Below are positions 15,508 to 62,300 of a DNA stretch of 64,000 bases, piece by piece; the stretch's first letter is position 1; each line of letters starts with the position of its first letter. A model generated the notes under the pieces. It saw nothing but the letters and a program-made list of their open reading frames with translations, did not search any database and was not told the origin of the DNA. Source of the stretch: Octopus vulgaris (taxonomy: Eukaryota); contig OX597818.1 of the NCBI GenBank assembly GCA_951406725.2, forward strand, positions 116,436,001 to 116,500,000, written 5' to 3'. Made by a program: the position numbers and the translations under genes.

Positions 15508-15808
15508 TGTTCCTTCTCGAGCCATGCCTGGCTCATAAGGGCTGGTTTCCTGTTTTCCTTGGCGTACAGGATTCCCCACCTAGACGGGACGCCGGTCCGT
15601 CGCAGGTGAGCTGCGAGATGCATGGGGAAAGAGTGAGAGAAGGTTGTGGCGAAAGAGTCAGCAGAAGTTCGCCATTAACTTCTGCCGGAGCCGCGTGGAG
15701 CTTAGGTGCTTTGCTCATAAACACACACATTGCTCGGTCTGAAATTCGAACCGGCTATCCCTCGACTGCGAGTCCGCTGCTCTAACCACTAGGCCATATG
15801 CTTCCACA
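15508..15808 (-). mobile_element. tRNA-derived SINE family C
   Basis: Reverse complement of 20343-20641; A box TGGCCTAGTGG and B box GGTTCGAAT. Confidence 0.9.
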
Positions 15809-16469
15809 AGCCTTAATATACCTTCTTGTTTATCATGGTTGCAGAACTAAATTCTGTGTCCGAGTAATTAAGATAAACATTTTATTGTCTTCAAATCTGT
15901 TCATGTAAAAAGAAAAGCCGCAATAAATACTATCCAGAGATGCCAGCAATCACAAAGTATATGAGTGGAAAAAGAAAAGTAAATCTACCAACTGGTATAT
16001 CTAATTGTCTGGTACTATTTTATCAGAAGAGGAGACAAGTTTAACAAGGCTCTAGTACCAAAAACTATTTTATTCTATGCTCTACAACTTTATAGTGAAA
16101 CCAGTTGTTCTGGTCTTTGGCAGGAGACCAGCATAGTCCAGTGTACATCAGTATTTAATTGTTATTTAAATAGTGGGCATCGATTAGTTCTTTATTGTCT
16201 TTCTGGTGGACAATAATGATTTTGTGACTTGAAAGTGTGTTTTATGGCTATCACAAATAATGTTGTGAACTCGACGACAAATTGGCTGAGTTATAAATTA
16301 TCAATTTATTCTGAGTTATTGTACTAAAACATTCTAAATAACCATATTTCAAAATATTATTACAGTTTATTCAAACATCAATAAATGTTTGAATTTTATC
16401 TGTTTTATTTCTAAAACACCTTCTGATAAATATTAAAATTTTCACGAATATTCGAAATTCACTGAACAT

Positions 16470-20342: not shown

Positions 20343-20641
20343 GTGGAGGCACATGGCCTAGTGGTTAGAGCAGCGGACTCGCGGTCGAAGGATCGCGGGT
20401 TCGAATCTCAGACCCGGCGCTGTGTGTGTTTATGAGCGAAACACCTAAGCTCCATGCGGCTCCGGCAGAAGGTAATGACGAACTTCTGCTGACTCTTTCG
20501 CCACAACTTTCTCTCACTCTTTCCTCCTGCATCTCGCAGCTCAGTGCGACGGACCGGCGTCTCGTCCAGGTGGGGAACCTATACGCCAAGCAAACCGGGA
20601 GACTAGCCCTTATGAACCAGGCATGGCTCGAGAAGGAACAC
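20343..20641 (+). mobile_element. tRNA-derived SINE family C, full length
   Basis: A box TGGCCTAGTGG, tRNA-like GGACTCGCGGTC, B box GGTTCGAATCT, tail GGCTCGAGAAGGAAC. Confidence 0.9.
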
Positions 20642-21152: not shown

Positions 21153-21342
21153 CGGCGGCACTGCGGGTGAAATTCTTAGCGTCTTATCGTCCGTCTTCCC
21201 GTTCTGAGTTCAAATTCCGTCGAGTTCGAATTTTGTTTTTATCGTTTCTGTGTCGACAGAATAAGTACCATTTGAGGACTGAGGACAATGTAATCGAATG
21301 GTCAACTCTCCGTATTTGCTCGCCTTGTGCCAAAGTTTGAAT
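21153..21342 (+). mobile_element. SINE family A, diverged
   Basis: GTTCTGAGTTCAAATTCCG core and CCTTGTGCCAAAGTTTGAA tail. Confidence 0.75.
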
Positions 21343-21546
21343 CCTATATTAACATGACCTAGAGATTTTATCTCTTATTAGACATCGGTTTTCAAGTTCA
21401 CATTCATTCACAGATTTTGACGCTCCAACGAATTTGCCAAAGCACTTAAAAGATTTATATCTCTACGATAACAACTTACCAAGCATATAACGGAGTAATT
21501 ACGTTGCTTGATCCATCGTATTCCATAACAAACCCAATATTTAATA

Positions 21547-21667
21547 CAGTTCTATATTTAAGAGATGAGGAATTATTTACATTATTTACATATGGCGTAG
21601 TGGTTAAGAGCATGGGCTACTGACCCCGAGATTCCAATTTCGATTCCCGGCAGTGACCATAATAATG

Positions 21668-21700
<33 letters not shown>

Positions 21701-21849
21701 TTGAAAAATACCTTAGGAATGAGAACGCAGGTTCGGAATTTCCCCAAGACACCTGATGAAGGATAGGGGGGTATATCAGCCGAAACGTAGTGTTAACAAC
21801 AAAAAAGATGAGGACAAATATCCGTCAAATGTAAATAATGTAAATAATG
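21547..21849 (+). mobile_element. Composite element (family H2): inverted tail fragment + tRNA-like head + (TAA)n + HHR + tail
   Basis: A box TGGCGTAGTGG 21593-21603, decayed B box ATTTCGATTCC 21637-21647, HHR 21748-21794; related partial copies at 46030-46160 and 62180-62300. Confidence 0.75.
21748..21794 (+). ncRNA. Minimal type-I hammerhead ribozyme motif
   Basis: GACAC-CUGAUGA-A-GGAUAG..CAGCC-GAAAC-GUA-GUGUU; stem I GACAC/GUGUU; loopless palindromic ACGU stem III; stem II mutated in this copy. Confidence 0.75.
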
Positions 21850-22081
21850 CCAATATCTAGTGGTTTTCATGATGAAAAATTGTTTTCCATAAACACCCAA
21901 CAGGAGTCACAAACAGTTAAATATATCTTGTAAACTCTTGTGACAATCTTGTCATGTCCATTACTAAAGACCTTCAATATAACAACTTTGTGTGCTTTCC
22001 ATATGCTTAATGTCGGTTGAATTTTTCCACTATTTTCCTTTTCGAATTTTGGTATGTTCTTCAATTTTTTCGTCATTTTTG

Positions 22082-45492: not shown

Positions 45493-46029
45493 ATATTATT
45501 GTATGCATAGGTTATAAAACTGTAGTGTAATATACGACGAGGATTTCATTGTTCATTTCTAGCAATTCTAGAGACTAGATGGTGGTTATCTGGTTGACTG
45601 TATGGTGTCGTCGTAGTTTTGCCATACTTATTTCCCATTTGGTGGACTAACTGAAATTATTTTATCTAATTCATCTTTAGATATTATACTCATGATACCT
45701 ATTACTTAGTTGCACACTTCCATTATGTTCTACGATTTTTTTCAAATGGTGTAATGTTTTCATTAATCAATTAATGGAGTTACTTGAAACGGCCGTAAGG
45801 AATCGACACCCGTGCATCTTTGTTAGTCATTTATATTTTATTCACCTAACAAGGAATCTGCCATTCGGAAATACTCTAGAAAGTACCTTCATAAAAAGTA
45901 CAGATCAGAATTACCAAGAACGGATATATTCACTTAGCTGGGATGCGTTGTCTGCACACACTACAAGAATATCAGGTACAAACACCCCTACATAAAGCCT
46001 TGATATTCAATATTCAATTAATATTCAAT

Positions 46030-46160
46030 ATTTACATTATTTACATCTGACGGATAATTGTCCTCATCTTGTTTGTTGTTAACACAATGTTTCGGCTGAT
46101 ATCCAACAAATGTAAATAATGTAAATAATGTTCATATTTCCTCATCTCTTAAATATAGGA
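46030..46160. mobile_element. Family H2 fragment: minus-strand HHR 3' half joined to a plus-strand tail
   Basis: Reverse complement ATATCAGCCGAAACATTGTGTTAACAACAAACAAGATGAGGAC matches 21774-21815; followed by AATGTAAATAATGTAAATAATG..CCTCATCTCTTAAATATAG. Confidence 0.75.
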
Positions 46161-57109: not shown

Positions 57110-58384
57110 TGCCGCCATTTTATATTTATAATTTCACGCGTTCTCATTGTTTGTTTTTGATTTTGTCAACTACACAGTATTGTAGCGTCAGTTGCGCATC
57201 GTCAGTGAAAAAAAAAACAGCACCATGACGCAATTCAATCTGCCAGAAATTTGGAAACGATATGCTGTACTTCTTGGCATTCCCGCTGGAAGCTCCAATA
57301 CGAACGTTTCAGAGGCTTTGTGTGTCAATCGGAGGACAGTGCAGAGGATTCGAAAAAAGTTGGATGAGTCTAATTGGATGAGCTTAATTGTGATTACGAA
57401 GGCACGGCTGCTCAGAAAAAAACTCATTCTGATTGTTCTGATAAGAAAAGAACTCGTGAATTTGTTGGTGAGATCCAGGCCAGGATGGACAACGATCCCG
57501 CCAAATCAATCAGATATTTCGCTAAGGATAAGAGGGTGTTCGATTTCTACATTGGGGCGGTAGTGCATGACGACATTCGGTATTCCTCATACAATATGAG
57601 AAAGGGTCAAGTTTTATCGCAAGCCATCAAAGACAAGAGGAAAGACCGCACTACGAAGCTTTTGAACAAACCCAAGCATCCGCCCCCAACCGAACGTTCT
57701 TTGGTTTTCCTCAGACGAGAAACATTTCTGTCAGGATCAGAACACACAGAACAACCGTTGGCTTGCTGTGTACCCAAAATATGTACCCAAAATGATACAA
57801 ATCAAACATCTAGTCAACATCATGGTGTTTGGAGTGATCACTAGTGATGGCAACGTTATACCTCCATTCATTTTCCCACGCGGCCTCAGACACAACACTG
57901 AGGGCTAGATCAAGTGCTTGGAGGTCAAGAGGGTGGCTGCTGGAAACCGTATGTCTGGCAACGAGACTACACAGTTCCACGCAAACAGGAAAAATGCAGT
58001 CATGCCTGACAGATAATTTCTGCGACTACAGCACCCCTAACATATAGTCACCTAACTCCCCAGACTTCAACCCCCTTGCTTATTGTGTGTGGGGGCAGTT
58101 ACACGAGAGACCAACAAAGCTCCTTGTAACACTAAAGATGAAGGCAAAGATTACGGCAGCATTCACGAACTTAAACAAGGAGACCGTCAAGAAGAGTTGC
58201 AGAAGATTCGGGAGTCTTCCCGAGGCCGTGGTTGAAGGCAATGGCGATTTTATTGAATATGTTTACTCTTTCGTATTTCAAAATATTTTTATGTAATTTT
58301 TAGTAAATATATCTGTAAAAATAAGATGTCAATGTCATTTCCATTTTTGTGTAATTTAGACGATAATTTATTCACCGCACCCAG
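57110..58384 (+). mobile_element. Decayed Tc1/mariner-superfamily transposon, maT/DD37D-like; transposase pseudogene about 57225-58290
   Basis: [26 protein letters not shown] region, FSDEK, IMVFGVITSDG..PPFIF and SPNSPDFNPLAYCVWG motifs across frameshifts; probable 3' TIR TTATTCACCGCACCCAG; 5' TIR not seen. Confidence 0.88.
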
Positions 58385-62179: not shown

Positions 62180-62300
62180 AGTTCTATATTTGAGAGATGA
62201 GGAATTATGTAGATTTTGTTTGTTGTTAACACAACATTTTGGCTGATATACTCTCCAGCCTTCATCAGGTGTGTTGGGGAAATTTCGAACCGGGGTATTA
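62180..62300 (-). mobile_element. Family H2 fragment with HHR at 62228-62273
   Basis: Reverse complement CACAC-CUGAUGA-A-GGCUG-GAGAGUAUAU-CAGCC-AAAAU-GUU-GUGUU; stem II perfect, GAAAC box mutated. Confidence 0.75.

Follow-up and report, generated by a model that had tools for sequence, protein, structure and literature searches.

A tRNA-headed hammerhead repeat of Octopus vulgaris belongs to the terminal repeat of a coding Penelope-type retrotransposon

The stretch at positions 21547-21849 of the window analyzed in the present study (64,000 nt of Octopus vulgaris, assembly GCA_951406725.2, contig OX597818.1, positions 116,436,001 to 116,500,000 of the forward strand) is a short, damaged, pLTR-only insertion of a very common coding retrotransposon of the Penelope type. 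It carries the Penelope footprint, i.e., an inverted arm and the pattern of one long and one short 3' end, together with a TSD that is tentative. We prefer, and regard as probable, the reading that an old autonomous element of the Penelope/Poseidon type inserted here head-to-head and with its pLTR only, and that its terminal repeat carries a captured tRNA-Arg-like head, which is a likely RNA polymerase III (Pol III) promoter. The anatomy of Penelope elements is itself already known; the new part is the tRNA-derived, promoter-like sequence in the terminal repeat of a coding element. The features of the window copy and of its two partial relatives are as follows, in window positions.

21534-21546, no strand: probable left copy of the TSD (tentative), a 10-nt match with one mismatch to 21850-21859, scoring 7, below the cut-off of 9
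21547-21591, minus: inverted arm pointing outwards, formed by the final 45 nt of a pLTR that has the long 3' end (Penelope tail); identity to body positions 138-182 of the family, 97.8%
21589-21658, plus: tRNA-Arg-like head covering family positions 4-73, with 84% identity to a head of the family
21593-21603, plus: A box, read from consensus boxes
21638-21647, plus: B box, its first G changed in the window copy
21659-21699, plus: (TAA)n spacer of variable length, read from the sequence and found in most family copies
21719-21849, plus: start of the ORF (approximately 44 codons, ATG at 21719), with the frame broken by a stop at codon 16 in the window copy; the same ATG opens the frame in locus L249
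21748-21794, plus: minimal type-I hammerhead motif lying within the coding frame, with a damaged stem II and a cut predicted after 21789; architecture as in the available text of PMC4209133
21748-21760, plus: hammerhead word GACAC-CUGAUGA-A, read from the sequence
21777-21794, plus: hammerhead word CAGCC-GAAAC-GUA-GUGUU, read from the sequence
21795-21849, plus: 3' part of the pLTR up to the short 3' end (body position 149), from alignment and the bimodal 3' ends of the family
21850-21862, no strand: probable right copy of the TSD (tentative), from the same repeat comparison as the left copy
46016-46158, no strand: second family insertion, with a minus-strand arm at 46016-46102 (body 73-158) placed head-to-head with a plus-strand arm at 46099-46158 (body 118-177)
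62180-62296, minus: third family insertion, a single arm in which body 26-109 is joined to 146-181 (internal deletion)

When the sequence was re-read, the inverted tail, the A box, the decayed B box, the (TAA)n spacer, and the hammerhead words of the preliminary description were each found at the place claimed for them, as were the two further partial copies with different lesions at 46016-46158 and 62180-62296. The window copy consists of a 45-nt long-end arm and an arm running from the head to the short end, with three bases at the joint common to both, and the RT + GIY-YIG ORF is absent from it. Regarding the hammerhead, the architecture originally proposed holds, whereas GUA, the triplet given there, is a rare variant of the family triplet GUU (present in 112 of the 113 unselected arms that have a letter at this place), and a C>A change plus a 1-nt insertion disrupts stem II of the window copy.

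The genome (2.8 Gb, 227 contigs) was searched with a 25-base ribozyme pattern and a 34-base head pattern, which gave 3,504 and 1,081 exact matches, respectively, while the reversed ribozyme pattern used as a control gave 0. Ribozyme-bearing arms number approximately 25,000, a rough estimate from the 19 of 135 arms not picked by ribozyme that fit the 25-base pattern. The body followed the head on the same strand in 24 of 29 head loci (30 fetched, one duplicate dropped) and did so across the ribozyme in 22, and a head lay upstream in 45 of 88 ribozyme arms. The source of these arms was the top of the list of ribozyme matches (its first 100 entries, which lie on contig C1 without exception). Of these, 10 were omitted as second arms of pairs or places already covered; two second arms were dropped from the remaining 90, and the loci L271 and L272 in this sample look like one duplicated locus.

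By pattern counts and linkage, the head, the (TAA)n spacer, the hammerhead motif, and the tail constitute one repeat family, which bears out the earlier reading of tRNA head, hammerhead, and tail as one composite; the refuting case named with it, a head that occurs with the hammerhead in the window copy only, was not observed. A chance nesting, in which a tRNA SINE came to lie beside a Penelope fragment at this one place, could be suspected from the window itself, where only one of the three family copies has a head. However, considering the number of head-pattern matches and the head-body linkage in 24 of 29 loci, 22 of them across the ribozyme, the probability of this explanation is negligible, and it was rejected.

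Two further observations concern the distribution and length of the copies. Among the matches listed, exact ribozyme matches were approximately six times denser in the first 4.7 Mb of contig C1 than at 5-82 Mb (30 vs 70). In the body, an AAT-AAT-GTA repeat at approximately 127-155 varied in length mostly by 9 nt (75 deletions of 9 and 11 of 18), and another site varied by 3 nt (55); the reading frame is kept by both kinds of change.

A common sequence upstream of the head, which was first seen at loci L030 and L049, extends up to 1.1 kb and codes for the end of a protein with RT and GIY-YIG domains. The end of this ORF lies directly upstream of the head in 1,042 junction matches with at most one mismatch (control, 0). 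A 147-aa RT piece had 5,020 candidates, 150 of which were scored; the RVT_1 match had an E value of 5.5e-10, and 985 homologues were present at E<=1e-20. The C-terminus aligned with homologues, one of which bears PF01541, and the GIY-YIG assignment is by this alignment, the Pfam GIY-YIG model itself giving no score on the decayed piece at L192.

On the other side of the unit, the tail continues into the ORF at L221 and L229, with 60 tail-ORF junction matches, and the ATG equivalent to window position 21719 opens a frame that passes through the ribozyme and tail into the RT ORF and is unbroken in L249. With the end of the ORF upstream of the head and its start within the unit, this unit represents the element's pLTR. 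Locus L229 has the tail, ORF, head, and body all in one orientation, i.e., a pLTR on both sides of the ORF, and the order of the element is head, (TAA)n, ATG, hammerhead, tail, the rest of the RT + GIY-YIG ORF (approximately 2.3 kb), stop codon, and head again. The copies have a median identity of approximately 91.5% to the family majority, and no intact ORF was found among the 150 copies scored, in which the longest open frame was 569 aa. Identity to a protein of Anolis sagrei was 40%, and inspection by eye gave no extra Cys motif for the stretch that links RT and EN.

The single ORF with RT and GIY-YIG, the pLTRs containing the first codons, the inverted arm and tail, and the short TSD of variable length are present at the family level, as in Penelope/Poseidon elements. 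The sequence accordingly reads as that of an old autonomous retrotransposon, probably of the Penelope/Poseidon type. A match of the tail to the terminal repeat of a Penelope-like element coding for GIY-YIG and RT had been named as a check, and it had been suggested that the unit was mobilized by a Penelope-like RT rather than by a LINE. The former is supported by the head-side and tail-side junction matches, and the latter by the RT + GIY-YIG ORF flanking the unit and by the inverted insertions of the Penelope type.

A separate Penelope partner was sought in 80 GIY-YIG loci, most of which were Neptune-like, and these had no ribozyme or tail in common with the unit except in stray copies; searches of this kind passed over the true ORF, whose GIY-YIG is a variant. 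Of 150 GIY-YIG matches that were scored, 16 contained an intact ORF of 781 aa and represent a young Penelope family of the Neptune-like kind (L104, L105), and no canonical hammerhead was found by descriptor within the 8 kb fetched at its loci. In a Neptune-like family, a hammerhead variant with a short palindromic helix III was noted (L064, 2376; L088, downstream of the ORF). A metagenome scan returned eight distant relatives with 34-45% identity, in the DNA of which no head with A and B boxes was seen, most of these sequences ending too soon to tell.

The hammerhead core (CUGANGA, GAAA, and UH) and helices I and II are present in the family majority. Among 135 unselected arms, each stem pair was formed in 89-97%, and 28 arms were fully intact; changes on both sides of a stem numbered only five, all from C-G to T-A, and neutral copies of one master cannot show covariation. 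The available text of PMC4209133 describes minimal hammerheads of PLEs with an extra base after position 9, and the octopus motif, as defined by its sequence, is alike in its helix I of 5 bp, its helix II of 6 bp, the extra base between 9 and 10.1, the palindromic 15.1-16.1, and its occurrence mostly as a lone motif in truncated PLEs, with nothing essential that differs. The family majority thus fits this architecture, in agreement with the minimal type-I hammerhead of the Penelope kind, including the extra base, that had been recognized in the window.

The further suggestion that the RNA is processed by its own ribozyme was not sustained as the main route, because only 18 of 245 arms not chosen by ribozyme have their 5' end at positions 88-97, the neighborhood of the predicted cut (90), an excess that is approximately 2-fold, not sharp, and located in a window picked post hoc. 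In the RNA reads of run X24, the pile-up of read ends anticipated at the predicted GUH cut site was not seen, and no joint from cut site to cut site was present among the joints listed, which came from a library not made for small circles. Judging from these sequences, ribozyme cleavage may be at most a minor route, with most copies running through uncut, and cutting by the hammerhead would require a dimer or the help of a protein. A second abundant repeat in the window (1409, minus; 27701, 31107, and 45313, plus) contains a motif resembling a hammerhead, in which the core is a variant one (CUGUAGA/CUGUUGA-A) and is accompanied by a GAGC/GCUC helix, GAAAC-GUA, and helix I CUUU/AAAG; this repeat is probably another Penelope-derived end.

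An inverted partner arm, with the 3' ends facing outwards, accompanied 49 of the 88 arms, as expected from the inverted insertion of the Penelope type that had been proposed. The 3' ends are bimodal, at approximately 176-182 (long) and 139-158 (short), and one long end was combined with one short end in 42 of the 49 pairs (P 7e-8), the two sites being approximately 31-34 nt apart. A TSD, mostly of 11-13 bp, was found in 23 of the 42 long and short pairs, compared with 0.8% after shuffling of the pairs. Next to the long end, the flanking sequence, read on the element strand, resembles the next bases of the template, TATTA (position -2, 32 of 42, P 1e-8), which reflects either pairing at priming or an AT-rich preference of the cut. 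The two arms of one insertion share derived changes at 0.74% vs 0.27% (maximum 0.43%) in shuffles, a 2.7-fold difference over 85 pairs, and, therefore, paired arms often come from one source.

The 3' ends of the family are not LINE-like; the long end is fixed and has no A tail, and the short end is a second fixed end, for which reasons mobilization by poly-A through a LINE was rejected. Head-to-head pairs dominate, with a few tandems seen (L019 and L060) and left uncounted, and the head-to-tail tandem model of retrozymes was rejected on this prevalence. According to the available parts of the respective papers, Pen2a of Adineta has a 31-bp optional tail, a pLTR with the first codons, and a TSD (PMC3846280), and the Penelope tail occurs at one end only (PMC8557442). 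In Poseidon of the anole, two internal RT starts bound the tail, both target strands are cut and extended, the main template is uncut RNA, and the ribozyme is active only with protein (available text of PMC11167929). At five of our loci (L251, L252, L260, L248, and L254), a pLTR followed by 40-234 nt from the beginning of the ORF runs into a new head, which it meets at position 1 or close to it, a structure suggestive of template jumping from the 5' end of an RNA.

Regarding the head, the family sequence aligns end to end with a tRNA-Arg(TCG) gene of this genome, the best of 25 distinct tRNAs sampled (z 7.8), and the A and B boxes are intact in the family majority. ARAGORN found no tRNA in the window or in any of the 29 head loci, Rfam returned neither a tRNA nor a hammerhead match for the repeat, and a generic tRNA pattern search had no match; the tRNA-like head and the hammerhead were identified from consensus boxes and base pairing. 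The 5' ends of the 88 arms were distributed over the body (18), the spacer (25), head positions 6-75 (8), head positions 1-5 (25), and the ORF (12). Among the 37 arms that reach head positions 1-5, 25 stop there vs eight ends in the preceding 70 nt (P 6e-39), and only three of the 12 arms that pass the head start end within the next 320 nt. Locus L257 starts at head position 1, and a clean ORF end directly before the upstream pLTR was present at 0 of 30 pLTR-ORF junction loci.

T4 runs are absent from the 2,320 nt of the sense strand of the majority sequence, which loses T4 runs made by mutation, vs expectations of 4.0 from shuffled bases (P 0.012), 2.7 from 752 codons shuffled synonymously (P 0.035), and 2.0 from shuffled dinucleotides (P 0.12, not significant). 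As a comparison, three Neptune-like ORFs of this genome contain 9, 8, and 1 such runs, one LINE-like ORF contains 2, and the eight distant relatives contain 50 in 9.8 kb. It is because 25 of 37 arms stop at the head start, the A and B boxes are kept, and no T4 run occurs that the captured tRNA-Arg-like head is considered likely to have served as an internal promoter of Pol III. In the RNA reads of run X24, which is of a related label (10,677 and 9,141 reads aligned), both strands were alike, the signal tracked genomic copy number, and no sign of a dedicated transcript was seen; given a library of unstated strandedness, this carries little weight regarding transcription. Elsewhere in the window, two copies of another tRNA-headed repeat, 88% alike, lie at 20347-20640 (plus) and approximately 15607-15820 (minus); its A-box region is 87% like the head of the Penelope family over 31 nt, and it is a possible relative of the head donor.

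The preliminary description explained the unit as a non-autonomous SINE/retrozyme hybrid, i.e., a separate lineage with its own tRNA promoter that is processed by the hammerhead and copied in trans by a Penelope, which we now consider highly improbable. The unit has the tRNA-derived head with A and B boxes of a SINE, every head-start copy carries the promoter boxes and both RT start sites, and 76 of the 88 ribozyme arms do not reach the ORF end; the body divergence of head-start copies is 4.5% vs 6.0%, in sets picked by different patterns, and the slight excess of 5' ends near the cut site, 2-fold in its post hoc window, also points in this direction. However, the unit is not a non-coding sequence separate from its partner, but follows the stop codon of the ORF, holds its start, and is its own 5' end. 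Head-start (n=70) and ORF-linked (n=37) copies have the same majority, with the two-allele site at 30/70 vs 16/37, and no diagnostic or private allele separated ORF-free from ORF-linked copies in this small sample; the ORF-linked set differs only by more gaps and changes and was chosen by another pattern. The ratio of head-start to ORF-linked arms, 25:12, needs no separate amplification if either pLTR of one RNA can be primed, most arms pass the ribozyme uncut, and pLTR-only copies are without the downstream RNA that anole Poseidon needs past the RT start sites (available text of PMC11167929).

An explanation closer to the preferred one, which we still regard as unlikely, retains the same Penelope and considers the head to be a passenger, namely, a SINE head in the 3' UTR of the master, with transcription by Pol II or read-through and with starts that come from cDNA fold-back or RNA cutting. 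A 12-nt palindrome spans the junction between the ORF end and head, inspection by eye assigned approximately 17 of the 25 head-start junctions to fold-back palindromes, and the pLTRs of rotifer Penelopes likewise show palindromes at the 5' end, beside promoter motifs of the TATA/Inr (Pol II) type (available text of PMC3846280), and so the pile-up at the head start could come from self-priming; the loss of T4 reaches only P 0.12 by dinucleotide shuffle. On the other hand, approximately eight of the 25 head-start copies join other sequence without fold-back, and a 5-bp hairpin is unlikely to halt 68% of passing enzymes. The boxes are intact even though the tRNA fold is lost, which speaks against structure-guided cutting, and T4 is absent from the majority sequence of the head, body, and ORF alike.

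Under the preferred reading of an autonomous Penelope with a promoter-like head, the transcript would start at or a few bases before the head, and the RNA would have the order pLTR-ORF-pLTR. Considering the TSDs, the enzyme of the element may cut both target strands approximately 12 nt apart. The asymmetry in 42 of 49 pairs, taken together with the anole data, suggests that cDNA would be primed from both ends, one at each of the two internal start sites (long and short). Priming would be aided by pairing of 3-5 nt or by an AT-rich cut preference, and the two cDNAs would join head to head. Priming on the first pLTR would give a complete-looking "SINE" of 260-300 nt, as in the window copy, and priming on the second pLTR would give 5'-truncated ORF copies, the template being mostly uncut RNA.

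An uncapped Pol III RNA of 2.6 kb is a poor mRNA, and Pol II read-through from host genes could have supplied the protein. A bolder version, which we put forward tentatively and with considerable doubt, is that Pol III reads the whole 2.6-kb element, hence the lack of T4; the promoter, being internal, would then free the element from the dependence of Penelope on an upstream tandem copy, the uncapped RNA, with its hammerhead within the first codons, would give the protein, and first-pLTR priming would shed tens of thousands of promoter-bearing units.

In the available texts on Poseidon of Anolis carolinensis (PMC11167929) and Pen2a of Adineta (PMC3846280), the octopus element has its likeness in one ORF coding for RT plus GIY-YIG at the C-terminus, a pLTR with a hammerhead and the first codons, an optional tail of 30-40 bp between two RT starts, an inverted 5' arm, a short TSD, and uncut RNA as the main template. 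It differs from both in that its ORF starts upstream of the ribozyme, the entire motif being coding. Pen2a has a putative TATA/Inr promoter (PMC3846280), whereas a tRNA-derived head with A and B boxes stands at the front of the octopus pLTR, and priming in anole Poseidon is reported to occur without homology (PMC11167929), whereas the octopus long-end flank fits a continuation of the template over 5 nt.

The Sm-alpha and Sj-alpha repeats of schistosomes, in the accessible text of PMC6765202, similarly combine a Pol III-type promoter and then a hammerhead in one short repeat; however, Sm-alpha is non-coding and tandem, and its active ribozyme cuts multimers, whereas the octopus unit is the terminal part of a coding element and is in most cases head-to-head and uncut. 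The TRIMp3 elements Cassandra, Helenus, and Ajax (available text of PMC10886601) also have a Pol III promoter derived from a small RNA in the terminal repeat, with the boxes kept and the structure lost, but are short non-autonomous LTR elements, in contrast to the octopus repeat, which is part of the very element that codes for the protein. Animal non-LTR retrozymes (PMC7229834; bioRxiv 10.64898/2026.07.22.740005, both in their available text) are likewise short hammerhead units related to PLE pLTRs; unlike the octopus unit, they are tandem, non-coding, and present as circular RNA. The available text of these two sources makes no mention of a tRNA head, with 0 matches for tRNA in the preprint, and that of PMC13282606 makes no mention of a hammerhead or ribozyme.

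No paper on a tRNA-headed Penelope pLTR was found in the literature, Repbase, Dfam, and subscription papers being outside the search. Ohshima and Okada reportedly described tRNA-derived retroposons of octopus in 1994, with the families OK, OR1, and OR2, and the present repeat is possibly, on our assumption, the tRNA-derived SINE described there.

Pol III promoters are known in short non-coding retroelements, such as SINEs, Cassandra, and Helenus, and the available text of PMC10886601 argues that the autonomous, coding partners of TRIMp3 must use Pol II. If the proposed role of the head is true, a Penelope that codes for protein and yet has a tRNA promoter in the terminal repeat would depart from this rule, and would show how SINE-like passengers of Penelope arise, by a direct route from Penelope elements. 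Caution is warranted with abundant "SINEs" of such genomes, since the end of a Penelope can be wrongly filed as one. Moreover, the ribozyme-bearing arms, at an estimated 25,000 or so, document in nature how priming proceeds from two sides at two fixed sites, which has so far been shown only in vitro and for one element.

Other repeats surround the insertion in the window. A decayed fragment of another very common repeat lies at 21200-21312, just 5' of the window copy, and two overlapping frames at 57186-57844 (plus) resemble a decayed transposase of the Tc1/mariner type.
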